64,000 nt of DNA from Acidobacteriota bacterium (GCA_022340545.1 JAJDNV010000159.1:21872-85871); one strand, 5' to 3'. Numbered from the stretch's first letter, positions 8,703 through 58,103 are shown. Made by a program: numbers and translations. The notes: generated from the letters alone by a model not told the origin.

Positions 8703-10022
8703 ATGTCTGATCCTGCGACTCCGACGGCGCAGGGGCGCCTCTCGTCCCCGCTGGCCCGGGCGACGATCCTCGGCGCCGCGCTCGTCCTCATCGGGACCGC
8801 TCCGAGCCACGCCCAGTGGACCCAGTGGCGGGGACCGGAGCGGGACGGCTCCGTGCGGGCCGGGCCGCGAGAGTGGCCGCCGCGGCTCGAGCTTCTCTGG
8901 CAGCGCGACGTCGGCGGGGGCTACGCGGGACCGGTCACGGACGGGCGGCGGGTCTGGGTGCACTCCCGCCGCGGCGGGAACGAGGTCGTCAGCAGCCTGC
9001 GCCTCGACGACGGAGAGCTGGTCTGGAGAGGGGAGTACCCGGCCCCGTTCCAGCAGGACCCGTCGGCAATAAACCACGGCAAGGGCCCCTACCCGACTCC
9101 CGCTCTCGCCGACGGGCGACTCTTCACGTTCGGCGCCCGGTCCGTGCTCACCGCCTGGGACGCCGGCTCCGGCGACCTGTTGTGGAGGGCCGACTACGCG
9201 AGCGAGTTCGACCCGGCCTACCCGTACTTCGGCGCCGTCGCCTCGCCGCTGGTGTGGGGCGGGCTGTGCTTCGTCCCCTTCGGGGGCGCGACGGAACAGG
9301 ATCCCGGCCGGGGCGCCATGATGGCCTTGCGAGTCGCCGACGGCCAGGAGGCCTGGCGTTGGACGGGTGAGGCCCCGGCCACCGGCGCGTCCCCGATCGT
9401 CCGCGAGATCGCGGGCCAGCCGCACCTCGTCTTCAAGAGCAAGGCCCTGATCGTCGGCGTCGACCCACAAACGGGCCGGGAGCTGTGGCGCATCCCCTTC
9501 AGGGTCTCGCAGGACAACACGATCGTGACGCCCGTCTTCGTGGGTGATCGCCTCATCACCTCGGACTACCAGATGGGAGCATGGGCGTGGCGCATCCTGC
9601 CGGACGGCGGCGGCTGGAGCGTGCGCGAGCTGTGGGAGAACCCGTCGGTCTCGATCTTCACCAGCTCACCGGTCCTCGCCGCCGGACTGCTGGTCGGCCT
9701 CTCCGAGACGCGGAAGGGAGAGCTGTTCGGCCTTGATCCGGCCAACGGGGAGATCCGCTGGCGGGGAGAGCCCCGCTGGGGGGAGCACGCCTCCCTGATC
9801 GCACGGGGAAACGAGGTGCTCGTCTTCCGCGAGGACGGCTCGCTGCTCGTCGGGAAGGTCTCTCTAGACGGCTTCGAGACGATCCGGCGCTATGGGGTGG
9901 GCGGCTCCCTGATGTGGGCCCACCCGGCGATCCTGGGCGACCGGATCATCGTCAGGGACGGAGACCGGATCGCCGTCTACGGCGTGTCTCAAGTTGATCG
10001 TCCCGACGCTGGGGCTCGCTGA
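8703..10022 (+). CDS. secreted PQQ-like beta-propeller repeat protein (BamB-like fold)
   Basis: Signal peptide. Repeated ...G.L.W.... units (GELVWRG, GDLLWRAD, GRELWRIPF, GEIRWRGE). Confidence 0.7.
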   Translation: MSDPATPTAQGRLSSPLARATILGAALVLIGTAPSHAQWTQWRGPERDGSVRAGPREWPPRLELLWQRDVGGGYAGPVTDGRRVWVHSRRGGNEVVSSLRLDDGELVWRGEYPAPFQQDPSAINHGKGPYPTPALADGRLFTFGARSVLTAWDAGSGDLLWRADYASEFDPAYPYFGAVASPLVWGGLCFVPFGGATEQDPGRGAMMALRVADGQEAWRWTGEAPATGASPIVREIAGQPHLVFKSKALIVGVDPQTGRELWRIPFRVSQDNTIVTPVFVGDRLITSDYQMGAWAWRILPDGGGWSVRELWENPSVSIFTSSPVLAAGLLVGLSETRKGELFGLDPANGEIRWRGEPRWGEHASLIARGNEVLVFREDGSLLVGKVSLDGFETIRRYGVGGSLMWAHPAILGDRIIVRDGDRIAVYGVSQVDRPDAGAR

Positions 10023-10137
10023 TATCCAACCTATAGCCGCACCGGCCCGCGGGACTCCGGAGGGCGCCCGGCATTGTGGGCGAGGTCCCGATCCCCGTAG
10101 AATCGCCGCGACCGGACACGTTCCCACGCGAGGAGTG

Positions 10138-11694
10138 ATGGACTACGCAGAGGGCCTCAAGAAGGAGGTCGCCGAGACCAAGTTCCTGATCCACGACCTG
10201 CGGGTGCAGTGGTTCTTCAACGAGGTCATCCACTACCACGTCAGCCTCAACACCGACCTCGAGGTCCACGGTGTCGAGCAGGCGCAGATCCTCCACGGGG
10301 CCGACCTCGACGAGCTCAAGGCCAAGGCCCGGGAGGTGCGGAAGCACCTCCGGGAGTACTCGAACGCGGTCACCAACTTCTCGCCGGACCGGACCGTCCT
10401 GGCCAGCGGCAAGAGCTACATCCAGGCGATCTTCGACATGTGCACGCTGATCCTGAACCCCATGTGGGGGAGGATCGATCGGGTCCTGTCCTTTCTGCCG
10501 TCGGAGTCGCGCTCGGTGCGGTCCCGCTCCCACTACCGGAACTGCATCCGCTGGATCTGCGGTGTCTACCGCCGCCTCGATCACTTCCTGGCCGAGCAGG
10601 GGGGCCAGGACACCCACGAGCAGTTCGACCTCGCCGACGACCTGCTGGACTACGCCCACCACACCCTCATCGGCTACGTCGTCGAAAGGAGCGCGGCCCG
10701 GGTGGAGCTCCGGCTCGACCGCCTGGACCACGCGGTTCTCGGCGGCCGGCGGCACCGCTTCCGGCGCATGTTCTTCAACCTGATCATGAACGCGGTGGAC
10801 GCCATGCGCTCCCGGAAGGTGGGGGTGGTCCACGCCAGCGCCGTGGTGGAGGGCGACGAGGTCAGTCTCCGGGTGAGCGACAACGGCGCGGGGATGTCCC
10901 CGGAGAAGATCGAGCAGCTCCTGGCGGACAAGGAGACCCTCGACGGAGAGCTCCACTCCCTGGGCTTTGTCTTCGTGCGGCAGACCGTCGCCGAGTTCGG
11001 CGGCACCCTGGAGATCACCAGCGAGGAGGGCCACGGCACCACGGTCACGATCCGCCTCCCGCACCTGCGCGACGCGGTGCCCACCCCGCGCATGCGCTAC
11101 GACTGCGAGAAGCTCGACCTGCTCAAGGAGGACGACCGCGGAGAGCCCGAGATCGGGAGGGTGACGACCACGGGGGCTCGTGCACTCCTCCCCGTCACGG
11201 AAGGCGCCGCCTGGGGCGAGACGATCCTCGAGGACTACCGGATCTCAGGTGCGGAACACCCGGGCTGCATCTTTGCCATCGGGGTGACCGAGGGGGACGA
11301 GGTCGACTACTTCACTCACAAGCCCTACGAGCGGCTCTGGAACCTCACCCACGAGGATCTCGCCCCCATGTTCTTCCGGGCCACCGTGCGGGGGCGGCTG
11401 GAGGAGGACGAGGAGAGACACCCGGTCCTGATCGTCAAGGCCCCGCACAGCGTGCGCGACTACTTCGAGTTCAAGGAGGTGCCGGAGGAGGAGCGGAGCG
11501 CCGAGACCTACGTCCGGATGGTGCACGACGAGTACGTCCGCATCGCGCGCAAGCTCATCGCCTCGGGCATGGACGGCCGTACGGGCGTCTACGTCACCGA
11601 GATCGAGAAGTTCTTCGCCGACCGCCCCGAGCTGATCGAGACGGAGCCGTTCCGGCTGGAACGCCTGGCGGACCAGAAGCTCAGCACCGAGTAG
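10138..11694 (+). CDS. GHKL/HATPase_c-domain protein (histidine-kinase-like ATPase) with uncharacterised N- and C-terminal regions
   Basis: ATG at 10138 preceded by GAGGAG. HATPase N/G1/G2 boxes: FFNLIMNAVDAM, VSDNGAGMSPEKIEQL, GFVFVRQTVAEFGGTLEITSEEGHGTTVTIRLP. No TM segment and no canonical HisKA H-box. Confidence 0.6.
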   Translation: MDYAEGLKKEVAETKFLIHDLRVQWFFNEVIHYHVSLNTDLEVHGVEQAQILHGADLDELKAKAREVRKHLREYSNAVTNFSPDRTVLASGKSYIQAIFDMCTLILNPMWGRIDRVLSFLPSESRSVRSRSHYRNCIRWICGVYRRLDHFLAEQGGQDTHEQFDLADDLLDYAHHTLIGYVVERSAARVELRLDRLDHAVLGGRRHRFRRMFFNLIMNAVDAMRSRKVGVVHASAVVEGDEVSLRVSDNGAGMSPEKIEQLLADKETLDGELHSLGFVFVRQTVAEFGGTLEITSEEGHGTTVTIRLPHLRDAVPTPRMRYDCEKLDLLKEDDRGEPEIGRVTTTGARALLPVTEGAAWGETILEDYRISGAEHPGCIFAIGVTEGDEVDYFTHKPYERLWNLTHEDLAPMFFRATVRGRLEEDEERHPVLIVKAPHSVRDYFEFKEVPEEERSAETYVRMVHDEYVRIARKLIASGMDGRTGVYVTEIEKFFADRPELIETEPFRLERLADQKLSTE

Positions 11695-11785
11695 GGCGAG
11701 TTTCGGCCGCCTGTCCCCCTCTTGGGGCGAGGCGGGCGTCCGGGCCCATCCCCGCGACTTTGACTCCCCCAGGTGGATGGGTAGG

Positions 11786-11914
11786 TGGGTACCGGTGCGA
11801 CTGGACTCCAGGCCAGGCCCATCCGCGTGTCCCTTCCCTGGGGACACGCGGATGTGCGTGGCCTATCTCAAGCCTTTCCCTCCCCCTACGTGGGGAGGGA
11901 TAGGGTGGGGGGTC
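11786..11914 (-). repeat. ~110-bp intergenic hairpin repeat element, copy B (inverted orientation)
   Basis: Reverse complement matches copy C over GACCCCCCACCCTATCCCTCCCCACGTAGGGGGAGGGAAAGGCTTGAGATAGGCCACG, then CGCGTGTCCCCAGGGAAGGGACACGCGG. Between convergent genes. Confidence 0.6.
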
Positions 11915-11934
11915 AATGAATGATCTGTGCCGAG

Positions 11935-13239
11935 CTACTTCTTGGCGGCCACTTCCTCCAGCATCGCGGTCGTCACCGACTTCGGCCGCTCGATCGGGTA
12001 GCCGAGAGCGCGGTCCCAGATGATGTTGCACATGACGCCCAGGGCCCGCCCGATTCCGAACAGCACGGTGTAGAAGTCGTACTCCTGCAGGCCGTAGTAC
12101 CACTGGATGACGCCGGACTGGGCGTCGACGTTCGGCCAGGGGTTCTTGGCCTTCCCCTGCTCCTCCAGGATCGGCGGCGTCACCTTGTACAGGATGTCGA
12201 CGTACTTGAAGATCGGGTCGTCGGGGAGGTGCTTCAGGCAGAAGTTGCGCTGCTCCATGTAGCGGGGGTCGGTCTTGCGCAGGACGGCGTGACCGAAGCC
12301 CGGGATGACCTGTCCCGAGTTCAGGGTGTCCCAGACGAACTTCTTCATCTCCTCTTCGCTCGGGACCTTCCCGCCCATCTGATCCATCACGCCCTGGATC
12401 CAGCGGAGAACCTCCTGGTTGGCGAGCCCGTGCAGAGGCCCGGCCAGGCCGTTGATCATCGCGGAGGCCGCGTAGTAGGGGTCGGAGAGCGCGCTGGCCA
12501 CGAGGTGGCCGGTGTGGGCGCTGACGTTGCCGCTCTCGTGGTCGCTGTGGAGGAGGAAGTACAGGCGGGCGACGTCGTCGTAGGGCTTGTCGATGCCCAT
12601 CATGTGGGCGAAGTTGCCACCCATGTCCAGGGTGAAGTCCGGGGCGATCGGCGTGTCGGCCCGGTATTTCATCCGGAAGATGTAGGCCCCGAGAGTGGGC
12701 AGCCGGGCCAGCAGATTCATCGCGTCTTCGTAGGTGGGGTCCCAGAGGTCCATCTTGGAGAGACCCTCGTTGTAGCGCTTCACGAAGACGGAGTCCCGCT
12801 GCATGCACAGGATCCCCGCCGAGAACATGGTCATCGGGTGGGTGTCGCGGGGCATGGCCCGGAGAACGTCGAAGACGTACTGGGGCACCCGCGAGCGGGT
12901 CTTGAACTCCTCGGCGACCGCCTCCGTGTCTTTCTTGGTCGGGATGTCGCCGGTCAGCAGCAGGTAGAGGAAACCCTCCACGTAGGGCATCTCACCGCCC
13001 GGCACCTTCGGCAGCTTCTCGAGCGTCTCGGGGATGGTGTACCCCCGGAAGCGAATGCCCTCGTTGGGATCCAGGTAGGAGATATCCGTGACGAGGCACT
13101 TCACCCCTCTCGCCCCACCGATGGCCTGGGCGATCGTCACGTCTCCGACCTTGACGTCACCGTGCTTCTTCAGCAGGGCGGTGGTGCGCGGGCGCCAGGC
13201 CTCGATCTTCTCCCGCAGCGTCTCCTTCAGCTTCGACAT
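11935..13239 (-). CDS. gltA: citrate synthase
   Basis: Full-length. GFGHAVLRKTDPRY and HSDHESGNVSAHTGHLVASALSDPY are citrate synthase signatures. Confidence 0.9.
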   Translation of the reverse strand: MSKLKETLREKIEAWRPRTTALLKKHGDVKVGDVTIAQAIGGARGVKCLVTDISYLDPNEGIRFRGYTIPETLEKLPKVPGGEMPYVEGFLYLLLTGDIPTKKDTEAVAEEFKTRSRVPQYVFDVLRAMPRDTHPMTMFSAGILCMQRDSVFVKRYNEGLSKMDLWDPTYEDAMNLLARLPTLGAYIFRMKYRADTPIAPDFTLDMGGNFAHMMGIDKPYDDVARLYFLLHSDHESGNVSAHTGHLVASALSDPYYAASAMINGLAGPLHGLANQEVLRWIQGVMDQMGGKVPSEEEMKKFVWDTLNSGQVIPGFGHAVLRKTDPRYMEQRNFCLKHLPDDPIFKYVDILYKVTPPILEEQGKAKNPWPNVDAQSGVIQWYYGLQEYDFYTVLFGIGRALGVMCNIIWDRALGYPIERPKSVTTAMLEEVAAKK

Positions 13240-13489
13240 GGATTCCTCCTAGACGGAATGATGCAATCGCCCCAGAAGGACTGGGGTTCCCCCGTGCCGC
13301 AGGTTCTCAAACAACGAGGCTGAGCCTCCAGCTGAGGACACACCGGCGGAAACTATCACACTCGGAACCTAGCACCCCGAGGAACCGCTCGTCCATGATC
13401 CCGAGGTTTCACCGGGCCTTCCCGGCGCCCCGGGGCCACGACGGGTGGGCACCGCGGGAGGTCCGGGCGGAGCCGATCACCCCGAGGGC

Positions 13490-15937
13490 TCAGACGATGA
13501 CCGCCGTGGCGGTGCTCCCCCCGGAGCGCCGCACCTCCAGGCGGGCGGGGAGACGCTCGGCCAGCTCCCGAACGTGGGTGACGACGCCGACCACCCGCTG
13601 GCCGCCATGGAGGGCGTCCAGCGCGGAAACGACGGTGTCGAGCGTCTCGCCGTCGAGCGTTCCGAACCCCTCGTCCAGGAACAAGCTCTCGAGGGCCTCC
13701 GCCGCCCGGCCGCCGGCCGAGAGCCGGGCCAGGCTCTCGGCGAGGGCCAGGGCGAGGGCGAGGGAGGCCAGAAAGGTCTCCCCCCCGGACAGTGTCCGGA
13801 CCGAGCGGATACCGTCGGCGTTCCAGTGATCGACGACGAAGAAGTCCTGCTCGGCCCGCGCCCCCGCACCCGCGGTCTCGCCCGAGCCCAGGCGCAGCGC
13901 ATAGCGTCCCTGGGAGAGCAGTGCCAGGTGGTGGGAGCCGTCTGCGGCGAGCCGCCGCAACGCCTCCTCCTGGATCCAGGCCACGAGCTCGTTGGCCCGC
14001 AGGTGATCGGACAGCGTCTTGAGAAGCGCGGCCTCGGCGTCGAGCCGGGTCTTCTTCTCCCGCAGCTCGGTGGCCCGGACGATCTTCCTTCCGAGACGCT
14101 CGACCTCGCCGCGGAGAGCTCCCACGCGCGTGGCGAGCGCGTTCGACTCTTGTTGACGCGCGGAGCGGCGCGCCTCGAGCGTGTCGACCTCGTCTCCACC
14201 TGCGTCGCGCCGCTCGAGAGGGTCCCAGCCCTCACGTGTGGCGAGATCGCCGAGCGCGGGCTCGATCTGCTCCACGATCGCGGACGCCGCCTCGCGCCGG
14301 GCGGAGATCTCCTCGAGCCGGGCGATCGCACCGTCCCTCCGTGCGGCGGCCGCGGCAAGCTCGGCCTGCAGCCCGGAGAGCTTCTCCTCGATTGTCCTCC
14401 GCTTTGCCTCGAGATCGATCTTTGCCCGTTGCGCGGCGTCGAGCGTCTTCAGCTCGGACTGGATCTCCTCCAGGAGGCGGGGCGCGTCGGCCACGTCGTC
14501 GCCTCCGAACCCTGCCGCGCGAAGATCGTTTGCCAGCTCGGCGCCCGAGGACGTCAGCTGCCCCGCCTGCTCCTCGACCTGAGCGAGCTCACGTCTCAGG
14601 CCCGCCGCCCCGGCCTGGGCCTTCTGGAGGTCCAGCCGGGCCGTCTCGGCGGCGGCGGTGGCGGCTCGCGCGGCCTTCTGCGCGCGGGTGACGCGCGCCT
14701 CAGCCTGGTCGAGCGCGAGGGCGTCGGCCTTCGGCACCGCCGGCACCGTCTGCTCGCACACCGGGCACGGCTCCCCGACCGTCAGCTCACGGCGCAGGGC
14801 CGCCGCCGCGTGCCGCCGGTGGGTCTCCTCCCGCTCCTCCCGTGCCGCCTGGAGCTCAGCCTCGGCCTCGCGCTGAGCGCCTTCGGCGGCCGGGACCGCG
14901 GATTCGGCCGCGACGAGGGCCGTCTGCCCCGCTTCGAGAAACGACTGCTTCTCGGCCCGCGCTTCGGCGAGCCTCTCGAGCTGTGCTCGGAGGGAGGCCA
15001 GCTGCTCTGCCTGCGGCTTCGCGGTCAGGAGGGTCCGCTGCCACTCGAGGTCGAGGCCCAGCCGGTCGATCTGCCCGGCCCGGGCCTCCAGCTCGCCCTC
15101 GAGCGCGGCGCGCGTCTCGTCGCCGCGAGCCAGCATGTCCTCGGCCGCCTTGCGCTTCTCCTCTTCCTGCGCGGCGTCTCGTGCCTGCCCGTCGATCTCC
15201 TGGCGGGCGGTGCGGAGCTTCCGGGCCAGCGTGAGGCCCTCGCCCAGGGCGGCCTGGGTCTTCTCGAGGGCGGCGACCTCCTCCTCGGCCTTCGCGAGCT
15301 CACCGCCTCGCTCCTCGAGCGTCTCGCGGGTGGCGTCCGCGAAGTCCCGCTCGAGCTGCTCCGCGATGAAGGCCGTCTCCTTCCGGGCGTCGGCGTTCTT
15401 CTGGTTGGCCAGCCTCTGGACGGCGTCGTAGATGCCCAGGTTGAGGAGCGACACCAGGATCTTCCGCCGCTCCTTCGGCTCGCCCTTGAGGAACTCGTCG
15501 AACTGCCCCTGCGGGAGGACCACCGCACGCGTGAACCCGTCGTAGTCGAGGCCGAGGATCTGCTCGATGTGAGACCGGATCTCCCGGGCCTTGTCCGCGA
15601 GCGGCTGCGCCTCGGCACCCTCCACGCGCTCGAGACGCTGCTTCGACGCCCCGGCCGGGCGCGCGGTGCGGGCCACCCGGTAGCGCAGCCTCGAGCGCCC
15701 CACCTCGAACTCCAGGAGGACGTTGAGACGCTCGGCACCGTGGCTGATGAGCTGCTTGTAGTCGTCACCGACCCGCGGCACCTGGCCGTAGAGCGCGAAC
15801 ACCAGCGCGTCGATGAGGGAGGACTTCCCGGACCCCGTCGGCCCGGTGATGGCGAACAGGTCGAGGCCGGAGAAGTCGATCGATTGCTTCTCCCGAAACG
15901 AGGTGAAGCCCTCGACCTCGAGCCGGATCGGTCTCAC
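13490..15937 (-). CDS. sbcC: SbcC/Rad50-like exonuclease ATPase subunit
   Basis: N-terminal Walker A (AITGPTGSGKSSLIDALVFALYG), long coiled-coil, C-terminal signature/Walker B (LSGGETFLASLALALA...LFLDEGFGTLD). Confidence 0.85.
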   Translation of the reverse strand: MRPIRLEVEGFTSFREKQSIDFSGLDLFAITGPTGSGKSSLIDALVFALYGQVPRVGDDYKQLISHGAERLNVLLEFEVGRSRLRYRVARTARPAGASKQRLERVEGAEAQPLADKAREIRSHIEQILGLDYDGFTRAVVLPQGQFDEFLKGEPKERRKILVSLLNLGIYDAVQRLANQKNADARKETAFIAEQLERDFADATRETLEERGGELAKAEEEVAALEKTQAALGEGLTLARKLRTARQEIDGQARDAAQEEEKRKAAEDMLARGDETRAALEGELEARAGQIDRLGLDLEWQRTLLTAKPQAEQLASLRAQLERLAEARAEKQSFLEAGQTALVAAESAVPAAEGAQREAEAELQAAREEREETHRRHAAAALRRELTVGEPCPVCEQTVPAVPKADALALDQAEARVTRAQKAARAATAAAETARLDLQKAQAGAAGLRRELAQVEEQAGQLTSSGAELANDLRAAGFGGDDVADAPRLLEEIQSELKTLDAAQRAKIDLEAKRRTIEEKLSGLQAELAAAAARRDGAIARLEEISARREAASAIVEQIEPALGDLATREGWDPLERRDAGGDEVDTLEARRSARQQESNALATRVGALRGEVERLGRKIVRATELREKKTRLDAEAALLKTLSDHLRANELVAWIQEEALRRLAADGSHHLALLSQGRYALRLGSGETAGAGARAEQDFFVVDHWNADGIRSVRTLSGGETFLASLALALALAESLARLSAGGRAAEALESLFLDEGFGTLDGETLDTVVSALDALHGGQRVVGVVTHVRELAERLPARLEVRRSGGSTATAVIV

Positions 15938-23833: not shown

Positions 23834-23947
23834 CCGTCACGCCGCGCATCCTCTGGCCGGGAGAGGGTGAAGCCCGGCCGACACCATGCAGATGAGGGAA
23901 CCGGCGGTGTCGCCGGCCCGTTCTCCGTCTCAGAGCGGAAGACAGGC

Positions 23948-25390
23948 ATGGCCACCGCGGTGTTACCATCCGACGCGATGATCGGGCAGACCTTCAAGCA
24001 CTACGAGGTCGAAGCGGAGCTGGGAAAGGGCGGCATGGGCGTCGTGTACCGCGCCCGCGACACCCAGCTCGGCCGCCCGGTCGCCCTCAAGGTCCTGACC
24101 CCGGAGTTCACCCGGGACGAGGACCGCAAGAAGCGGTTCCTGCAGGAGGCCAGGGCCGCGAGCGCCGTCAACCACCCGGCGATTGCCCCGGTCTACGAGG
24201 TGGGCGAAGGCCCGGAGGGCCTCTTCATCGCGATGGAGCTGGTCGAGGGCCGCACCGTCAAGGCCCTCATCCAGGCCCGCGAGCTGGATCTCCTCGGGGG
24301 CATCGAGGTGGCGCTACAGGTGGCGGGCGGGCTCCAGAAAGCCCACGAGGCGGGCATCGTCCACCGCGACATCAAGCCCGAGAACGTGGTCGTCACCCCC
24401 GACGGGCACGCGAAGATCCTCGACTTCGGCCTGGCCAAGCTCCTCGAGCCCACCGCGCCCGCGACTGCCCGCTCCGCCGACGAGATCTCGCACATGGAGA
24501 CGCTGGCCAAGACGCAGGCCGGCTTCGTGCTGGGCACCCTCCGATACATGAGCCCCGAGCAGGCCCGCGGCCAGGCCATCGACTACCGGAGCGACATCTT
24601 CTCGCTTGGCGTCGTGCTCTACGAGATGGTGACGGGCCAGCTGCCCTTCTCGGGCTCGACTCCGCTGGACACCCTGCACGCCATCGCCTACGAGGAGACT
24701 CGCCCGGTCACCGCGCTGCGACCGAACATCCCTGCGTCCCTCCAGCGCGTCGTCACCCGCTGCCTCCGAAAGCGGGCGGCCGATCGCTATCCCGACGCCC
24801 GCGAGCTGATCACGGACCTGAAGGCGGTGCAGCGCGAGGTGGAGAGCGGGATCTCGAGCAAGGTGCCGCTGGGGGTGAGGCTGCAGGAGCAGTGGACGTC
24901 GCTCCGGCACCGTACGCTGGGCGAGTGGCTCCTGCCGGCGGGTGTGGGCGTAGTCCTTCTCGCGGTCGTGCTCGCGATGCTCTTCGGCCCGGAAACGGAG
25001 GGGCTCCCGGGCAGCCTGATCTTCTTCGGGATCGTCGGGCTCTTCGTGTGGCGCCGCTTCCGCAACCGCCGTATCCGCCTGGCCCGCCGGGCGGTGAAGA
25101 AGATGAGCCGGATGGAGGAGGTCCGCCTGATCGCCCTGGACGGGATGCGCCTCACGGTGCTGGCCGACCGGGCCCAGGCGCGAACCTACGTGCGCGCGAA
25201 CGCGATCGTGGACGCGGTGAATTCGAGCATGTTCTTCGGGGATCCGTTTACGGTGGTGGTCCGCGACGACGTCTCCGACGAAGAGGCCAAGGCGTTGCTG
25301 ACCGGACCGGGCATCCTCTACGTGCGCGAGAACGAGCCCCTCCCTCCCGCGCCCCCCGCCCCGAACACCACCTCGGTCGAGCAGGGCTGA
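23948..25390 (+). CDS. Ser/Thr protein kinase with TM segments and a C-terminal extracytoplasmic domain
   Basis: GKGGMGVVYRA...ALK, HRDIKPEN, DFG, SPEQ Hanks motifs. ATG at 23948. Confidence 0.8.
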   Translation: MATAVLPSDAMIGQTFKHYEVEAELGKGGMGVVYRARDTQLGRPVALKVLTPEFTRDEDRKKRFLQEARAASAVNHPAIAPVYEVGEGPEGLFIAMELVEGRTVKALIQARELDLLGGIEVALQVAGGLQKAHEAGIVHRDIKPENVVVTPDGHAKILDFGLAKLLEPTAPATARSADEISHMETLAKTQAGFVLGTLRYMSPEQARGQAIDYRSDIFSLGVVLYEMVTGQLPFSGSTPLDTLHAIAYEETRPVTALRPNIPASLQRVVTRCLRKRAADRYPDARELITDLKAVQREVESGISSKVPLGVRLQEQWTSLRHRTLGEWLLPAGVGVVLLAVVLAMLFGPETEGLPGSLIFFGIVGLFVWRRFRNRRIRLARRAVKKMSRMEEVRLIALDGMRLTVLADRAQARTYVRANAIVDAVNSSMFFGDPFTVVVRDDVSDEEAKALLTGPGILYVRENEPLPPAPPAPNTTSVEQG

Positions 25391-34342: not shown

Positions 34343-35314
34343 TCAGGGCCGAGCAACGGGCCGGTAGTCCGGATACCGAGCGTCGGCCTTCGAGAAGGTC
34401 ACCTGGCGCGCCTCGCCGTCGGCGAGGTGGTACCGGTAGATCTCCCAGCTGCCGGTCATTGTGGAGGCGAAGGCGATCTCCGAGCCGTCGGGCGAGTAGA
34501 CCGGGTCGTAGTTCAGGGCCGGCCAGTCCACGAGAACCGCCTCCTCTCCCGTCGCGAGATCGTGCTCGACGATCGCGCTCACGCTCTTGTCCTCCCGGGG
34601 GCGGCGGTGCACGTAGACGACCTTCGTCCCGTCCGGGCTGAACCGCGGCTCACAGCCACCGACCTCCGAGATCTGACGGGTCTCGCCGCTGGCCACGTCG
34701 ACGACGTAGATCTGGTGTCCCCTCTTCCAGTTGGAGGAAAAGACGATGCGCGTCCCGTCCGGGCTCCAGTGCGGGTTGCCCATGACAGTCCGTTCACCGT
34801 GGCGCACGAGGGGCCGCAGCTCGCTCGTCTTCTGGTCGAGGAGCCAGAGGGACTCGGCGCCCTCCCGGTTCGAGAGGAAGGCGAGGAAGCGGCCGTCCGG
34901 GGATTCGTCGACCTGCCACTCCCGATGGTCGTTGACGAGCACGCGCTCGGGCTCCCCGCCGTCGGCCGGGACCTTCCAGACCTGCCAGCTTCCCGAGCGC
35001 CGGGACGTGAACAGGACCGAACGGCCGTCCCGGGTCCACCGCGGCAACCCATCGTCGGCAGGATGGCTCGTCAGCTGGATCGACGGTCCGCCCTCGACCG
35101 GGACGATGTAGAGGTCCCGAGCGTCCTCCGGTCCCTGTCCGTAGACCAAGGCGCCCTCCGGAATGGCCCGACCGTCAGCACCCGGAGCCCCCGAGCTGGA
35201 GCCGTGGCATGCCACCAGGATCAGCGTGGCCAGGGCGCAGGCGGCGCGTCCTTCGACTCCCGTCCGCCCGGGCGGCCGGCGTCTTCTTCTCGCAGGTCGT
35301 CGCACGACGATCAC
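34343..35314 (-). CDS. TolB-like PD40 beta-propeller lipoprotein
   Basis: Lipobox LILVAC. Repeated SPDG..IAF/SPDGT.IVF PD40 motifs. Confidence 0.7.
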   Translation of the reverse strand: MIVVRRPARRRRRPPGRTGVEGRAACALATLILVACHGSSSGAPGADGRAIPEGALVYGQGPEDARDLYIVPVEGGPSIQLTSHPADDGLPRWTRDGRSVLFTSRRSGSWQVWKVPADGGEPERVLVNDHREWQVDESPDGRFLAFLSNREGAESLWLLDQKTSELRPLVRHGERTVMGNPHWSPDGTRIVFSSNWKRGHQIYVVDVASGETRQISEVGGCEPRFSPDGTKVVYVHRRPREDKSVSAIVEHDLATGEEAVLVDWPALNYDPVYSPDGSEIAFASTMTGSWEIYRYHLADGEARQVTFSKADARYPDYRPVARP

Positions 35315-37014: not shown

Positions 37015-37210
37015 GGACTCTCCCGGGGCGGAGACCCGCACATCCCCCTACCATGGTGCAACGCCGGGAGGCCACTCGCCATTCCCGGCGGGACGACGAC
37101 CCGTGGGGGCGTAGGTGGTGTATGCTGCGGCATCGTTCCAGGTCAGACGTCCGGCGGCCCCCGCGGAGCAGGGGTTTTTCCTCGCCTGCGGGGCCGGGGA
37201 GGCGACGAAG

Positions 37211-39928
37211 ATGAGCCTGAAGTCCGGCCAGCGCCTCGGGCCCTATGAGATCGAGTCCCCACTCGGCGCGGGAGGCATGGGCGAGGTGTACCGCGCCCAG
37301 GACACACGCCTGGGTCGCTCCGTCGCGATCAAGGTGCTCCCGGCCCACCTGGCCGAGCACCCGCAGCGCCGCGAGCGCTTCGAGCGGGAGGCCAAGGCGG
37401 TCGCCGCCCTCAGCCATCCCCACATCTGTGCGCTCTACGACGTGGGCGAGGAGGACGGCGTCTCCTTCCTCGTCATGGAGCACCTCGAGGGCGAGAGCCT
37501 CGCCGAGCGGCTGTCCCGGGGAGCGCTGCGCCTCGACCAGCTCCTGAAGATCGGAGCCGAGGTGGCGGGCGCCCTCGACCGGGCCCATCGGGCCGGCATC
37601 GCTCACCGCGACCTCAAGCCCGGCAACGTCATGCTCACGAAATCCGGGGCCAAGCTGCTGGATTTTGGCCTCGCCAAGAGCGGGCTGGCCGAGCCGGAGC
37701 GGACGGAGTCGAGCGCGCCGACCGAGGCCGCTCCGGGGGTGGCTCCCCAGGATACGAGCGCCCCGACCGAGGCCAAGCCGCCCCTCACCGAGGCGGGAGC
37801 CGTGCTCGGCACCTTCCAGTACATGGCCCCCGAGCAGCTCGAGGGAGAGGAGGCGGACGCACGAGCCGACATCTGGGCCCTCGGCTGCCTGCTCTACGAG
37901 ATGGCCACAGGGAGCCCTCCCTTTGCCGGGAAGAGCCAGGCCAGCCTCATCAGCAGCATCATGCGGGACGTGCCGGTGCCGGTCGGGGAGCGGCAACCCC
38001 TCACCCCGTCCTCGCTCGAGCACGTGATCGCCCGGTGCCTGGAGAAGGACCGCGAGGACCGCTGGCAGTCGGCCCACGACGTCGCGGAGGAGCTGACCTG
38101 GATCCAGCGCGCGGGCGGGCGGGACGCGACACCGTCGGTGGAAGCCGGGAAGACGCCGCGCCGACCGGGGACGAGCCGGATGGCCCTCGCGGCCGCGGCG
38201 GCGGCCGTCGCCGGGGCGGTGCTTGGCTACGCGCTGGGGTGGGGCCGCACGGAGACGACCGGCGCGGCGAGCTGGAGCGCGCAGCAGCTGACTTTCCAGA
38301 AGGGCGTCGAGAATCACCCCGCGCTGTCGCCGGACGGCCGTCAGGTCGCTTACGTGAGCGAGGCCTCCGGCAACGCCGACATCTACCTCCAGCGCGTCGA
38401 CGGGCGCAACGCCATCAACCTGACGAAGGACTCCCCGGCCGCAGACACCGAGCCCGCTTTCTCGCCGGACGGGAGCCAGATCGTGTTCCGCTCCGAGAGG
38501 GGCGGCGGCGGGATCTTCGTGATGGGAGCCACCGGGGAGTCGGTTCGGCGCATCGGCGACCTGGGCTACAACCCCAGCTGGTCCCCCGACGGCCGCCGGG
38601 TGGTGGTCTCTACGGAGAGAGTCGCCGACCCCCTGAGCCGCCAGGCCACCGCCGCCGAGCTATGGACGGTCGACCTCACCTCCGGGGAGACCCGCCGGAT
38701 CTACGCCGGCGACTCCGTCCAGCCGGCGTGGTCACCCGACGGTCGCTGGATCGCCTTCTGGCGGGTGGACGGCAACTCCGGCCAGCGCGACCTCGCCACC
38801 ATCGACGCGGAGGGCACGGGCGAGTCGGCCGCGGTCACGACCGATGTGCCCGTCGACTGGAATCCAGTCTGGTCGCCCGACGGGCGTCACATCTACTTCG
38901 TGAGCGACCGGGCCGGCACCATGAACGTGTGGCGGGTGGCGATCGATCCGGAGACAGGCGGCGCGGACAGCGAGCCGGTGATGGTGGGAACGCCGGCGGA
39001 GGACGTGGCCTGGCTCTCGGTGGCGAGAGAAGGGGGGAACCTCGCGTACGTCTCACGCTCGGCCCTGCACTACCTCCACTCGTTCCCGCTCGACCCGGAG
39101 CGGCTCCGGCCCGCCGGCGAGGCACGGACAGTCCTCGCCGGGGCCCTGCCGATCCGGTACACCCACCCGTCGCCCGACGGGGCCTCGATCGCGCTGACGA
39201 CCGCGGGAAGCCGCGAAGACCTCTACGTTCTGCAGAGCGACGGGGGCGAGTTCCGGCAGCTCACCGACGACCCCTTCCGGGATCGCGGCCCCCAGTGGTC
39301 GCCCGACGGCTCCGAGATCGCCTTCTATTCCAACCGCTCGGGGACGTATCAGGTCTGGAGCATCCGGCCGGACGGCAGCGGTCTGCGGCAGCTGACGGAC
39401 GTCGCCGATGGGGCGTGGTTCCCGTACTGGTCGCCGGATGGGAAGCGGATTGCCTTCCCCACCGGGAGGGGCACCTGTCTCGTCACCGTCGGTGACGCTC
39501 CGGTGTCGACGGCGGAGTGCCTGCCCGACCTGTCGGCGGACCAGTGGTACGAGGTGCGCGACTGGTCGCACGACGGCCGCTGGCTGGTCGGAAACGCGTC
39601 GCTGCGTGCGGGCGCCGTCCGCCCGGACCTCCTGCTCTGGTCCTTCGACGCCGAGGAGTACCAGCCGATCGAGCATCCCGGGTTCGTGGCACGATGGCTC
39701 CCGGACTCGCGGAATCTCGTCGTGATCGGAGACGACGGGCGCCTCACCCTGGTGGACCACACGACGGGCACCGCCCGCGACGTCGGACGCATCGAGAGCA
39801 GCGGCACGGTCGACCGGGAGCAGATGGGCCTGTCCCGCGACGGCCGCACCGTGCTCGCCCAGGCCAAGTCTCTCGAAGCCAACATCTGGGTTCTCTCGCC
39901 GCCAGAAGATTCCGAGTCCGACGACTAG
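37211..39928 (+). CDS. Ser/Thr protein kinase fused to a C-terminal TolB-like PD40 beta-propeller
   Basis: Hanks motifs (GAGGMGEVYRA, HRDLKPGN, DFGLAK, APEQ), a TM segment, multiple SPDG...PD40 repeats. ATG at 37211 after GGGGAGG. The C-terminal ...SESDD overlaps a hairpin repeat motif. Confidence 0.8.
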   Translation: MSLKSGQRLGPYEIESPLGAGGMGEVYRAQDTRLGRSVAIKVLPAHLAEHPQRRERFEREAKAVAALSHPHICALYDVGEEDGVSFLVMEHLEGESLAERLSRGALRLDQLLKIGAEVAGALDRAHRAGIAHRDLKPGNVMLTKSGAKLLDFGLAKSGLAEPERTESSAPTEAAPGVAPQDTSAPTEAKPPLTEAGAVLGTFQYMAPEQLEGEEADARADIWALGCLLYEMATGSPPFAGKSQASLISSIMRDVPVPVGERQPLTPSSLEHVIARCLEKDREDRWQSAHDVAEELTWIQRAGGRDATPSVEAGKTPRRPGTSRMALAAAAAAVAGAVLGYALGWGRTETTGAASWSAQQLTFQKGVENHPALSPDGRQVAYVSEASGNADIYLQRVDGRNAINLTKDSPAADTEPAFSPDGSQIVFRSERGGGGIFVMGATGESVRRIGDLGYNPSWSPDGRRVVVSTERVADPLSRQATAAELWTVDLTSGETRRIYAGDSVQPAWSPDGRWIAFWRVDGNSGQRDLATIDAEGTGESAAVTTDVPVDWNPVWSPDGRHIYFVSDRAGTMNVWRVAIDPETGGADSEPVMVGTPAEDVAWLSVAREGGNLAYVSRSALHYLHSFPLDPERLRPAGEARTVLAGALPIRYTHPSPDGASIALTTAGSREDLYVLQSDGGEFRQLTDDPFRDRGPQWSPDGSEIAFYSNRSGTYQVWSIRPDGSGLRQLTDVADGAWFPYWSPDGKRIAFPTGRGTCLVTVGDAPVSTAECLPDLSADQWYEVRDWSHDGRWLVGNASLRAGAVRPDLLLWSFDAEEYQPIEHPGFVARWLPDSRNLVVIGDDGRLTLVDHTTGTARDVGRIESSGTVDREQMGLSRDGRTVLAQAKSLEANIWVLSPPEDSESDD

Positions 39929-53941: not shown

Positions 53942-53981
53942 CACAACCTAAACGACTCACAATGAGTCGGTTAGGTTGTGG
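53942..53981 (-). terminator. strong hairpin downstream of the GME gene (17-bp stem, 4-nt loop)
   Basis: ACAACCTAAACGACTCA caat TGAGTCGGTTAGGTTGT with one mismatch. About 80 bp past the stop at 54063. Confidence 0.5.
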
Positions 53982-54062: not shown

Positions 54063-55037
54063 CTAGACCTTCTCCCCGCGGGCCATGGCCTTCTCGGTCT
54101 GCTCCTTCACCCAGGGGTAGGTCCGGGAGAGGCCGTCGCGAAGGCTGTGCCGGTCGACCCAGCCCATCGAGCGGATCCGCTCGGAGCTGTGGTTGCGGGC
54201 GTGAACGCCCACGGGGCCGTCGACGTGGCGGATCTTGACCGTCTTGCCGGCCACCTCGGCCACGAGCTTCACGAGGCCGTCGACCGATATGCGCTCGTCG
54301 GCGCCGATGTTCGTGGGCTCCTCGACGTCGGACTGCATGAGCAGGCGGATGCCACCGACGAGGTCGTCGACGTAGGTGAAGACGCGCATGGCCGTCCCGT
54401 CGCCCCACACCTCGATGGTGCCGCCGTCCTCGACCGCCGCGACCTTGCGGCACATCGCCGCGGGGGCTTTCTCGCGTCCGCCGTTCCAGGTGCCGTAGGG
54501 GCCGTAGCAGTTCTGGAAGCGGGCCACCCGCACCGTCATGCCCATGTTGCGCTGGAAGGCGAGGGCCACCCGCTCGGAGTAGAGCTTCTCCCAGCCGTAC
54601 TCGTTGTCGGGCTGGGCGGGATAGGCCTCTTTCTCGGTGAGATCCGGCTCGTCCGGCTGCTGGTCGCGGTAGACGCATGCCGAGGAGGAGAAGAGGTAGC
54701 GCGGCACACCGTGGTGGGCCGCGGCGTGGCTCATGTGGGTGTTGATCAGCAGGCTGTTGTGCATGATCTCGCACTCGGCGGAGTGGATGAATCCCATCCC
54801 ACCCATGTCGGCGGCCAGCTGATAGACCTCGTCGGCGGGTTTGCCGTCGACGAGGACCGCCCGTACGCAGCTCTCCGGGTCACGAAGGTCGAGCTGCAGG
54901 AACTCGTCGGCCGCGGTCTGCCGAAACTCATGCTGCTTGATGTCGACCCCGCGGACCCAGAGGCCCTCCTGCTTCAGCCGCTCGACCAGGTGGCCCCCGA
55001 TGAACCCTCCCGCACCACAGACCACCGCTCTCTTCAT
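54063..55037 (-). CDS. GDP-mannose 3,5-epimerase (GME-type extended SDR)
   Basis: Long collinear matches to plant GME: LAADMGGMGFI, RFQNCYGPYGTWNGGREKAPAAMCRK, GVHARNHSSERIRSMGW, TYPWVKEQTEKAMARG. N-terminal GAGGFIGGHL. Confidence 0.85.
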   Translation of the reverse strand: MKRAVVCGAGGFIGGHLVERLKQEGLWVRGVDIKQHEFRQTAADEFLQLDLRDPESCVRAVLVDGKPADEVYQLAADMGGMGFIHSAECEIMHNSLLINTHMSHAAAHHGVPRYLFSSSACVYRDQQPDEPDLTEKEAYPAQPDNEYGWEKLYSERVALAFQRNMGMTVRVARFQNCYGPYGTWNGGREKAPAAMCRKVAAVEDGGTIEVWGDGTAMRVFTYVDDLVGGIRLLMQSDVEEPTNIGADERISVDGLVKLVAEVAGKTVKIRHVDGPVGVHARNHSSERIRSMGWVDRHSLRDGLSRTYPWVKEQTEKAMARGEKV

Positions 55038-55175
55038 GGTCGACTCTCACCCTCCTGCTCCCCGCCGGGATGCGGGCAGACGGAACGTATCACAACTCCC
55101 TGGAGGCTCCGACGGCGGCACTCCCAGCTGTCGCACCTGTGAGACGATACGCGCCTCAGACGCGCCCGGGGATCC

Positions 55176-58103
55176 ATGCAGCTCTTCGACATCGTCCTCA
55201 TCACCGCCGGCTCCGAGCGACAGGCCGGGGCTTTCCGGAGCCTGATCGTCCGTCGACAGGACGCCGGCCTCTACCCTCGCGAGGTCGCCTTCGAGGTGGT
55301 CGCCGATCCCCCCGGCGGCCGCGTGGGCACCGGGGGCGGGACGCTGTGGGCGATCGCGCAGCTCCTCGAGCGTCGACGGCCTGATGATCCCGCTGAGTTC
55401 CTGGGGCGCCAGCGCATCCTGTTGATCCATGCGGGAGGAGAGAGCCGCCGGCTGCCGTGCTACGCCCCCGAGGGGAAGCTCTTCGCCCCCCTCCCCCTGC
55501 CGTCGAGCGCACTGCTGCCTCCGGTTGTTCTGGATGCTCAGCTCGGGCTCTTCTTCAAATACCCCTGGCGACCGGGAGAGACCGTTGTCACCACCGCGGA
55601 CGTGTTCATCGACTTCGACGCGGCGAGCGTGCCCGAGGAGCGAGGGCCGGTGTTCGGCTTCGCCAAGCCGGCCCCCCTGGAGCAGGGCTCGCGTCACGGT
55701 GTCTTCCGCTTCGACCGGCACCGCGAGCGGGTGATCGACTACTTCCAGAAGGCGCCGGTCGGGGTTCTGGCCGAGCACGCCCTCATCGAGGGCACCGGCG
55801 AGTGCGCCCTCGACATCGGGCTCGTGTCCCTGGGTCCGGAGGCCCTGCAGGCCTTCCTCACCCTGGGTGAGGCGCCCTTCGAGGACGGCTCTCTCGTCGG
55901 GGGGCTGGCGTCCGGGCACTTGCGCTTTGACCTGTACCTGGAGGTGCTGACCGCGTGCCTGGACGGCCTCTCCTTCGGGGCCTTCTGGGAACGCGTGAAG
56001 GACGCGAGCGCCCTCACCCCGGCGCTGGCGCGCGTCGTCTACGAGGCGTTCCACCCATTCGGGCTCGGGGGCACGATCACCCGATCGACGACGTTCGTTC
56101 ACCTCGGGAGCCTCGCCGAGTTCCCCGGGGCCTGCCGCGATCTCCTCGCTCACCAGGCACGGCCCTTCTACGAGCCCGACGACGGCGAGATCCGACCGAT
56201 GGTGACGTCGGAGGGGATCGTCCACAACAGCACCGCAGTTCGCACGGGAGGCCATGCGCACGCCCCGGCCCTCGTGGAGTCCTGCTCGTCGTGCTCGTTC
56301 CCCTCTCTCGGCGGAGACAACCTCCTCGTGGGTCTCGACGGCGCCGAGATGCCCTTCGAGATTCCGGCGGGGATCGCCGTCGAGGGGCGCGGCCTCGGGG
56401 AGGATCGGGTCGTCGTGGTCGTTTCCGCCCGAGACAGCTTCAGGGTCGTGGATGATCCGGCCGACCTCGTCTTCTGCGGTCAGCCTCTCGACCGGTGGCT
56501 CGACGAGCGCGGCCTCACCCGGGCCGACGTCTTCGAGGAAGACGACGCGACCGACCTCTTCGCGGCGCGGCTGTTCTGCTGCGGTCCGTCGACCGACCTC
56601 CTCGCCGGCTACCTGGCCTGCCCGGACTCGGGCTGGACCGCCAGCTTCCGCGCTGCGCGCCGCCGGTCGCTCTACGAGATCCAGGAACGTGACGACGCCC
56701 TCCGCCGGGAGGATCGCCGGGTGGCACGGCGGCGGGAGCAACTGCGCGCCCTCTTTGAGCGTGGTCATGGCTGGCAGGGGGTGAGCGCGCAGGATTTCGA
56801 GTCCACGTTCGAAGGCGGGGAGTGGCGCCGCCCGCTCGGCGAATGGCTCGAGCGCACCGACGACGCCGTCTTGCGCGCCTACCGCCAGCGCCTCTATCGC
56901 GCGATCGCCGGGCCGCGCGCGGCGGCGGCGCCCCGGCTGCCCGAGATCGAGTACGTGCCACGGACGACGGACGGCCCCCCGCTCCGCCTGGCCCTCAAGG
57001 AGGATCAGATCGTGTGGGCGCGGGCCCCGGTGCGGCTCGACCTCGCGGGCGGCTGGACCGACACCCCGCCCTACACGCTGCGCCACGGCGGCCGGGTGGT
57101 GAACCTCGCGGTGGACCTCAACGGGCAGCCACCCATCCAGGTGTTCTGCCGCCGCACCGCGGAGCGCCACGTGCGCATCCACTCGATCGACCTGGGCCAC
57201 ACGGAGACGTTCACCCGCTTCGAGCAGCTGCGGGACTACGACGATCCCGCATCACCCTTCGCGCTGCCGAAGGCCGCCCTCTCCCTGATGGGGATCGGCG
57301 TCTCGCCGGGCGAGAGGCCGACGCTCCAAGATCTTCTCGATCACCTCGGCGCCGGTCTGGAGATCACGCTGCTCTGCGCGGTGCCCAAGGGCTCGGGACT
57401 CGGGACCTCCTCAATCCTGGGAGCCGTCATCCTGGCCGCCTTCGCGCGCTTCTTTGGGCGCCCGGTCGTCATGGACGAGCTGATCCGGCAGGTCCTCCAG
57501 GTGGAGCAGATGCTGACCACGGGTGGGGGCTGGCAGGACCAGATCGGGGGCGCGATCGGCGGCATCAAGTGCGTGGAGAGCCGCCCCGGCTTCCGGCCCC
57601 ATCCCGTCACCCACCAGCTCGATCCCTATCTGTTTCAGGACCGGGACAGCCTCGGCTGCTTCACCCTCTTCTACACCGGCATCACCCGCCTGGCGAAGAA
57701 CATCCTGTCCGAGGTGGTCGACCAGGTGAACAGCGGATCAAAGGCCTACATCTTCACCCTCCAGCACATGGCCCAGCTCGCCCTGGACGCGAAGGACGCC
57801 ATCGAGCGACGCGATCAGCGCGCCCTCGCCGTCGTCCTGGGCCTCTCCTGGCAGGCCAACAAGCGCGTGCACCCGAGCACGACCAACCCGGAGGTCGAGG
57901 AGATCTTCGCTGCCACCGGTGGCCACCATGATGGGGTCAAGCTCCTGGGGGCGGGCGGCGGCGGCTACGCCCTCTTCGCCTCGCCCGACCTGCCCCACGC
58001 GGACGCCCTGCGCGATCTGCTGCGCCGACGCTTCGAGAACGCCCGCGCCCGCCTCGTCGATTTCTCGCTCAGCACGTGCGGCCTGGAGGTGTCCGCCTCC
58101 TAG
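55176..58103 (+). CDS. bifunctional L-fucokinase/GDP-L-fucose pyrophosphorylase-like protein (N-terminal sugar-1-P guanylyltransferase-like domain + C-terminal GHMP kinase)
   Basis: 975 aa. C-terminal GHMP motif PKGSGLGTSSILGAVILAA and LLGAGGGGYALF. N-terminal ~450 aa with fucose-pyrophosphorylase-like layout. Divergent from GME, 138 bp apart. Confidence 0.75.
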   Translation: MQLFDIVLITAGSERQAGAFRSLIVRRQDAGLYPREVAFEVVADPPGGRVGTGGGTLWAIAQLLERRRPDDPAEFLGRQRILLIHAGGESRRLPCYAPEGKLFAPLPLPSSALLPPVVLDAQLGLFFKYPWRPGETVVTTADVFIDFDAASVPEERGPVFGFAKPAPLEQGSRHGVFRFDRHRERVIDYFQKAPVGVLAEHALIEGTGECALDIGLVSLGPEALQAFLTLGEAPFEDGSLVGGLASGHLRFDLYLEVLTACLDGLSFGAFWERVKDASALTPALARVVYEAFHPFGLGGTITRSTTFVHLGSLAEFPGACRDLLAHQARPFYEPDDGEIRPMVTSEGIVHNSTAVRTGGHAHAPALVESCSSCSFPSLGGDNLLVGLDGAEMPFEIPAGIAVEGRGLGEDRVVVVVSARDSFRVVDDPADLVFCGQPLDRWLDERGLTRADVFEEDDATDLFAARLFCCGPSTDLLAGYLACPDSGWTASFRAARRRSLYEIQERDDALRREDRRVARRREQLRALFERGHGWQGVSAQDFESTFEGGEWRRPLGEWLERTDDAVLRAYRQRLYRAIAGPRAAAAPRLPEIEYVPRTTDGPPLRLALKEDQIVWARAPVRLDLAGGWTDTPPYTLRHGGRVVNLAVDLNGQPPIQVFCRRTAERHVRIHSIDLGHTETFTRFEQLRDYDDPASPFALPKAALSLMGIGVSPGERPTLQDLLDHLGAGLEITLLCAVPKGSGLGTSSILGAVILAAFARFFGRPVVMDELIRQVLQVEQMLTTGGGWQDQIGGAIGGIKCVESRPGFRPHPVTHQLDPYLFQDRDSLGCFTLFYTGITRLAKNILSEVVDQVNSGSKAYIFTLQHMAQLALDAKDAIERRDQRALAVVLGLSWQANKRVHPSTTNPEVEEIFAATGGHHDGVKLLGAGGGGYALFASPDLPHADALRDLLRRRFENARARLVDFSLSTCGLEVSAS

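Follow-up and report, generated by a model that had tools for sequence, protein, structure and literature searches.

Conserved pairing of genes for a GDP-mannose 3,5-epimerase homologue and an FKP-type bifunctional enzyme in Acidobacteriota

Two divergent genes within a 64,000-nucleotide stretch of a soil-type Acidobacteriota bacterium genome (GCA_022340545.1 JAJDNV010000159.1:21872-85871; hereafter ‘the window’, meaning the whole stretch) encode a 324-amino-acid (aa) short-chain dehydrogenase/reductase (SDR), assigned here to the family of GDP-mannose 3,5-epimerases (GME, also called GM35E), and a 975-aa homologue of FKP, the bifunctional fucokinase/fucose-1-phosphate guanylyltransferase of Bacteroides fragilis (BfFKP). 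The linkage of GME and FKP genes recurs beyond the window and is more than chance, and the pair probably constitutes a two-gene module supplying GDP-β-L-hexose donors: GDP-L-galactose or GDP-L-gulose made de novo, together with GDP-L-fucose, and possibly GDP-L-galactose, obtained by salvage. The coordinates, lengths, orientation and spacing of the pair given in a preliminary description of this DNA all agree with the open reading frame (ORF) listing, in which both ORFs start with ATG (Table 1). The two N-termini (MKRAVVCGAGGF... for the SDR and MQLFDIVLITAGSERQA... for the larger protein) agree with those of many homologues. Third-position G+C content is 0.93 in the SDR ORF and 0.89 in the 975-aa ORF, with low G+C at second positions in both; as other credible genes in the window (G+C approximately 70%) carry the same signature, both ORFs are taken to be real coding regions. 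For both proteins, the nearest named homologues belong to metagenome-assembled genomes (MAGs) of Vicinamibacteria/Acidobacteriota.

Pfam places the SDR only in the generic Epimerase and GDP_Man_Dehyd families, but comparison with solved structures is more specific. The top five entries in a search of the PDB were all GDP-mannose 3,5-epimerases (277–279 bits), and the Arabidopsis enzyme (AtGME; PDB 2C59, EC 5.1.3.18) aligned collinearly across residues 6–323 (E 4.2e-82, 279 bits; 44% identity across 310 aligned residues), bearing out the near-collinearity with plant GME described earlier. The N-terminal Rossmann motif (GxxGxxG/A) that binds NAD is present as GAGGFIG at aa 8–14, and the catalytic triad S119, Y147 and K151, lying in SSSAC and YGWEK, aligned with the corresponding AtGME motifs (the Ser of the S143 region, Y174 and K178). 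C121 is equivalent to the catalytic acid C145 of AtGME, K190, within GGREKAPAA, to the base K217, and R281, in HARN aligned to GRN of the plant enzyme, to the Cys-acidifying R306. According to a review of GM35E, a Cys/Lys/Arg set distinguishes GM35E from GMER/Fcl, which has Cys/His/Lys, and separates it from GalE too; because C121, K190 and R281 fit the former set, the SDR reads as a GME rather than an Fcl.

It can be given almost no credence that the SDR is instead a GDP-fucose synthase (Fcl), a GalE or another extended SDR. Its best NCBIfam match by name is indeed GDP-L-fucose synthase (NF047922), and no GME model is among its NCBIfam matches, yet that match, at 117.4 bits, is far from the cutoff of 500, while true Fcl neighbours in other loci reach 444–468 bits on the same model. 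Likewise, GDP-fucose synthase is merely the next PDB class after GME, at 91 bits (E 6e-25), and the SDR has Lys190 as base instead of His and Arg281 as Cys-acidifying residue instead of Lys. GalE was rejected as an identity: its score on the NCBIfam model TIGR01179 was 74 bits, where the cutoff is 262.3, and the SDR possesses an extra Cys/Lys acid-base pair. The hidden Markov model and PDB searches thus group the SDR with GME, as had been proposed, and with neither of these relatives.

The SDR shares with AtGME its fold, length class, NAD motif, Ser/Tyr/Lys triad, Cys/Lys pair and Arg helper, but is without the N-terminal (approximately 28 residues) and C-terminal (approximately 25 residues) extensions of plant GME and, unlike the plant enzyme, without a link to ascorbate synthesis. 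The sole characterised bacterial GME, MfGM35E of Methylacidiphilum fumariolicum, is approximately 50% identical to AtGME, and its Arg carries the same residue number as Arg281 here; the genomic partners differ, a glycosyltransferase and a methyltransferase adjoining MfGM35E where FKP adjoins the window GME.

The premise that GME homologues are uncommon in bacteria did not survive. Searching a library of 1.84 billion representatives recovered GME-like proteins in 752 clusters at 50% identity (E≤1e-30), and a GME-profile scan of metagenome contigs yielded at least 559 confirmed matches, the best 80 of which were kept. The best 120 word-index matches were all at least 68% identical, under names from Acidobacteriota, Chloroflexota, Kiritimatiellae and Lentisphaerae. 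This number of clusters, and such close matches across several phyla, indicate that the family is common in environmental bacteria. Many strong GME-domain matches are proteins of 520–845 aa (P0243, P0245, P0250, P0272, P0276, P0321); in some organisms, therefore, GME forms fusions with other domains.

By alignment, the 975-aa protein is a full-length relative of BfFKP, similar in two-domain order and in size (975 versus 949 aa). Pfam detected PF07959 in the N-terminal half (118.7 bits, cutoff 34), followed by GHMP_N (PF00288, aa 718–795, 41.1 bits, cutoff 22.3) and a marginal GHMP_C (PF08544, aa 873–954, 20.4 bits, slightly under the cutoff of 21). The protein covers positions 51–973 of 974 in the NCBIfam model PRK13412 (bifunctional fucokinase/fucose-1-phosphate guanylyltransferase) at 526.8 bits, and its best solved relative is BfFKP (5YYS; 399 bits, and 559 bits once a 13-sequence profile is used). 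Homology to the N-terminal domain of BfFKP begins before the Pfam domain, from aa 40–42. Of the two domains, the kinase has diverged much less than the N-terminal one (325 versus 65–88 bits); a profile match to BfFKP spanning aa 307–976 scored 469 bits. The architecture previously proposed, a guanylyltransferase-like domain ahead of a GHMP kinase, therefore holds, with collinearity to BfFKP in both domains. The Acidobacteriota FKP lineage represented in the window is approximately 50% identical to the FKPs of Spirochaetota and Fibrobacterota.

Residue-level conservation is close to complete. Positions of BfFKP engaged with GTP, fucose-1-phosphate or catalysis were taken from the 2025 crystal-structure paper (PMC11982464), which gives D31, H73, G75, G76, R79, R80, K89, D136, H168, K187 and H272 in the N-terminal domain and R592, W599, D601, T602, E751, Q761 and D762 in the kinase, among others. 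All 28 published positions mapped are kept in the window protein (listed in Table 1), 27/28 of them identical, the single substitution being Ser39 to Thr.

The conserved neighbourhood of the two genes is the second line of evidence. Scanning one genome per species with an FKP profile gave 73 loci, 10 of them from Acidobacteriota, of which eight had adequate flanks (L003 is short of upstream sequence, and in L025 FKP, lying at a contig end, is incomplete). In 5/8 a true GME, 68–94% identical, lies directly beside FKP: divergently, as in the window, in L001, L002 and L008 (gaps of 119–137 nt), and upstream on the same strand, 31–37 nt apart, in L004 and L005. L001, from an uncultured Acidobacteriota MAG, keeps the entire local gene order of the window at 81–96% amino acid identity, but in L002, L004, L005 and L008 no window gene other than GME is kept near FKP, from which it follows that the pair has stayed together through changes of both surroundings and orientation. 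In L001, the closest relative, the FKP ORF (within 10001–14633) ends at 851 aa, with the remainder in another frame, and a 565-aa ORF absent from the window (12936–14633, minus strand) stands between FKP and PepD. Either a frameshift or an error of assembly could account for this, or FKP could be a pseudogene carrying an insertion.

The association extends well beyond Acidobacteriota. An FKP-like gene adjoins GME in 6/44 metagenome loci whose flank reaches 3 kb or more on one side (L084, L100, L101, L110, L143 and, divergently, L121), and the pair is present in an Anaerolineae MAG, followed there by UDP-GlcNAc 2-epimerase, phosphodiesterase, Wzx and Wzy. MAG contigs bearing the pair include CAVOYO010000012, CAWKAS010000002 and CAVSPR010000009. 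Mutual identity of at most 35% separates the GME-linked FKPs into four or more lineages, and the GMEs linked to them are 63–71% identical to that of the window (41% in L066). In Spirochaetota-type loci, the slot beside FKP holds a GDP-fucose synthase instead of GME (the Fcl neighbours scoring 444–468 bits above). As either GME or Fcl fills this slot, FKP tends to adjoin whichever enzyme carries out the last step in making a GDP-L-sugar de novo. The fcl-fkp pairs of Spirochaetota-type MAGs thus resemble the window in having FKP directly beside the SDR that finishes such a pathway, but differ in the SDR itself, GME giving GDP-L-galactose/GDP-L-gulose without deoxygenation.

Could the two genes simply be chance neighbours, unrelated nucleotide-sugar genes whose adjacency has no functional meaning? 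The housekeeping character of the window's flanking genes would allow this, as would the three Acidobacteriota loci in which no adjacent GME was found (L006, L007 and L009). However, the pair survives the loss of all other synteny and the inversion of GME, recurs in different phyla with FKPs at most 35% identical to one another, and is visible from the GME side too, with PF07959 in 5/93 immediate GME neighbours and FKP-like proteins among the most frequent; chance adjacency is accordingly highly improbable. The literature searched, among it the GM35E review and the FKP phylogeny of 2025, holds no mention of a GME-FKP gene pair, and the FKP phylogeny does not discuss this context for FKP. The two proteins belong, as ordinary members, to known families; what is new is a modest comparative finding, their conserved pairing.

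Genomic context points to glycan synthesis in other lineages. A census of 93 immediate GME neighbours in 62 metagenome loci counted nine SDR/GDP-mannose dehydratase proteins (including Gmd), eight GT1/GT4 and seven GT2 glycosyltransferases, seven GHMP kinases (the PF07959 proteins being five of these), three to four export proteins and three DegT proteins, on which basis bacterial GME is mainly a glycan-biosynthesis gene, with FKP among its commonest partners. The pair itself occurs with Wzx and Wzy (L079), with a GT-C glycosyltransferase (L084) and with a dehydratase, an NTP_transferase and Wzy (L101). On one strand of L066 (9917–19695) lie FKP, Fcl, two small family-less ORFs, a plant-like GME and two DegT aminotransferases. 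The earlier suggestion that the pair makes and/or salvages sugars of the GDP-L-galactose or GDP-L-fucose type for a glycan gains support from these contexts and from the conserved synteny.

A route can be proposed from what is established for the two enzyme families. Tightly bound NAD+ in GME would oxidise C4' of GDP-mannose, the Cys/Lys acid-base pair would epimerise C5' and C3', and C4' would then be re-reduced. In FKP, the C-terminal GHMP kinase would use ATP to phosphorylate a free L-fucose-configured sugar at C1, and the N-terminal domain would join the sugar-1-phosphate with GTP to give the GDP-sugar. Both GDP-sugars would serve as donors for fucosyltransferase-like glycosyltransferases, their likely destination being a surface glycan specified by genes at other places in this genome.

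Several observations weigh against so reading the pair. No glycosyltransferase, flippase or polymerase is found near it in the window, and a search of all 64 kb for glycan-assembly, gmd, fcl and manC-like genes returned just one GT4, 28 kb away. GME is missing within 10 kb upstream of FKP in L006, L007 and L009, as it is from the available downstream flank (10 kb in L009, 0.7–1.7 kb in L006 and L007). Genes of glycan breakdown or sugar conversion surround the pair in two related Acidobacteriota loci: in L004/L075 (597–14327) it sits amid GH2 with mannosidase-type domains, a heparinase II/III-like protein, DUF4861 and GFO/IDH/MocA, and in L005 (7797–15047) amid GFO/IDH/MocA oxidoreductases and a GH130 mannoside phosphorylase. 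Finally, the 975-aa protein falls short of the PRK13412 equivalog cutoff of 721 bits, and is a member of the family but not one certified as the exact functional equivalent of that model.

Two other accounts of the pair concern what FKP and GME act upon. FKP converts free L-fucose via the 1-phosphate to GDP-L-fucose, but BfFKP also takes, more weakly, D-arabinose and L-galactose (Km 3.3 mM for the latter versus 34 µM for L-fucose; PMC11982464), and FKP in GME-linked loci might be a dedicated L-galactokinase/GDP-L-galactose pyrophosphorylase, whose salvage converges with GME on GDP-L-galactose just as Fcl-FKP pairs converge on GDP-L-fucose. The alternation of Fcl and GME beside FKP in different lineages, the association with GME in at least four FKP lineages and the ability of BfFKP to turn L-galactose into GDP-L-galactose (PMC11982464) would all suit such a role. 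Against it, BfFKP binds L-galactose approximately 100-fold more weakly than L-fucose, FKP, Fcl and GME are all present in L066, and FKPs linked to GME share their published sugar-contacting residues with those linked to Fcl. These include V143 and F307, equivalent to Val137 and Phe270 that are modelled facing the fucose methyl group in BfFKP, and W627, equivalent to Trp599 that stacks on C4–C6 (PMC11982464). No specificity switch between the two kinds of FKP was found at the 28 published ligand/catalytic positions, the one exception among sugar-site positions being Gln186 to His, confined to the Anaerolineae-type FKP lineage. With first-shell residues so alike, a preference for L-fucose or L-galactose is not readable from the sequence, and no bacterial enzyme of L-galactose salvage turned up in the literature searched; dedicated L-galactose salvage is unlikely, though the better placed of these two accounts.

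The second would run the pathway backwards in a Leloir-like manner, FKP activating scavenged L-galactose or L-fucose and GME epimerising the product at C3 and C5 to GDP-D-mannose, or GDP-L-fucose to GDP-D-rhamnose; the resulting GDP-D-mannose could re-enter metabolism as mannose-1-phosphate. The GME equilibrium favours GDP-mannose (approximately 80:15:5; PMC6678494), the Acidobacteriota loci lack glycan-assembly genes around the pair, which in L004 and L005 stands beside GH2, GH130, a polysaccharide-lyase-like protein and GFO/IDH/MocA. However, most bacterial GME genes, and several GME-FKP pairs, lie in biosynthetic clusters, the neighbouring genes in Acidobacteriota vary and may be unrelated, and neither a precedent for the route nor a trial of GME on GDP-L-fucose was found in the literature searched, leaving the reverse direction a decidedly improbable one. 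Supply of GDP-L-sugar donors to a glycan is therefore preferred as the probable function of the pair.

Features of the pair and of its surroundings in the window are given in Table 1. In an alignment of four divergent orthologous loci, two blocks of the intergenic region stand out as conserved while the sequence around them has diverged. The blocks have in common TGT(N0/5)GATACG, each read toward its own gene, with five extra bases in block 2. The variable base of the GATACG motif covaries across loci (L002 has GATAGT and GATAGG). Searched for as a pattern, the shared motif was detected in block 2 only, as the two halves overlap in block 1. A sigma-70 promoter scan of the intergenic region gave no consensus match and a repeat finder returned nothing there; compared by eye, neither block fits a CRP/FNR-type TGTGA-N6-TCACA palindrome. 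The blocks could be candidate -10-like promoter elements, or operator or shared-factor sites, through which the two genes might be co-regulated; block 1 may be one half of an operator. Past the GME stop lies a near-perfect stem-loop, terminator-like although without a clear U-run, which suggests that GME is transcribed on its own here.

Table 1. Positions of the GME-FKP pair and associated features in the window
Feature	Position	Strand	Details
GME homologue, 324 aa	54063..55037	-	GxxGxxG 8-14, S119, C121, Y147, K151, K190, R281
FKP homologue, 975 aa	55176..58103	+	ORF listing
Sugar-1-phosphate guanylyltransferase domain, N-terminal	55398..56582	+	PF07959 at aa 75-469; BfFKP positions kept: D44, G51, T52, H85, G87, G88, S90, R91, R92, K101, D142, V143, H174, G175, Q191, K192, F307, H309
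GHMP-type sugar-1-kinase domain, C-terminal	56985..58097	+	aa 604-974; matches the C-terminal domain of BfFKP at 325 bits; BfFKP positions kept: R620, W627, D629, T630, G743, E777, G785, Q787, D788, A926
GHMP phosphate-binding motif PKGSGLGTSS	57384..57413	+	aa 737-746
Divergent intergenic region, 138 bp	55038..55175		Between the two start codons; ORF boundaries
Conserved block 1, GGAACGTATCACAAC	55082..55096		GME-strand reading GTTGTGATACGTTCC; alignment of four divergent orthologous loci
Conserved block 2, CTGTGAGACGATACG	55137..55151		Ends 24 nt ahead of the FKP ATG; alignment of four divergent orthologous loci
Stem-loop, 37 nt, near-perfect	53943..53979	-	ACAACCUAAC CGACUCA UUG UGAGUCG UUUAGGUUGU; 84-120 nt past the GME stop
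Ser/Thr protein kinase gene	23867..25390		
Ser/Thr protein kinase gene	37115..39928		Fused to a PD40/WD40-like beta-propeller
PD40 protein, separate	34343..35314		

The neighbours of the pair in the window, an M74/LysM endopeptidase, a small protein without a family match, a PepD-type dipeptidase and a ketoacyl synthase, are unrelated to sugar metabolism. Elsewhere, an aquaporin-family (MIP) gene follows GME on the same strand, approximately 10 nt downstream, in L002 (8151–8897) and L008/L074 (8148–8894), with an ILVD/EDD dehydratase nearby in both and an AGE-family epimerase in L008. A xylose-isomerase-like TIM barrel is found among the carbohydrate-active genes flanking the GME-FKP operon in L004/L005.

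The biochemistry of FKP is based on a few enzymes from Bacteroidota, plants and trypanosomatids. At present the pair stands as a sound annotation and a modest observation of comparative genomics. That it is conserved in Acidobacteriota, in Chloroflexota and in further uncultured lineages points to the use of L-galactose or L-gulose, next to L-fucose, in the glycans of environmental bacteria, and offers candidate enzymes for making GDP-L-sugars. Were FKP to prefer L-galactose, or GME to act on a salvaged GDP-sugar, the pair would represent a new salvage or interconversion route, and the reverse route, if true, would bring environmental L-sugars into central metabolism or into the metabolism of D-sugar glycans.

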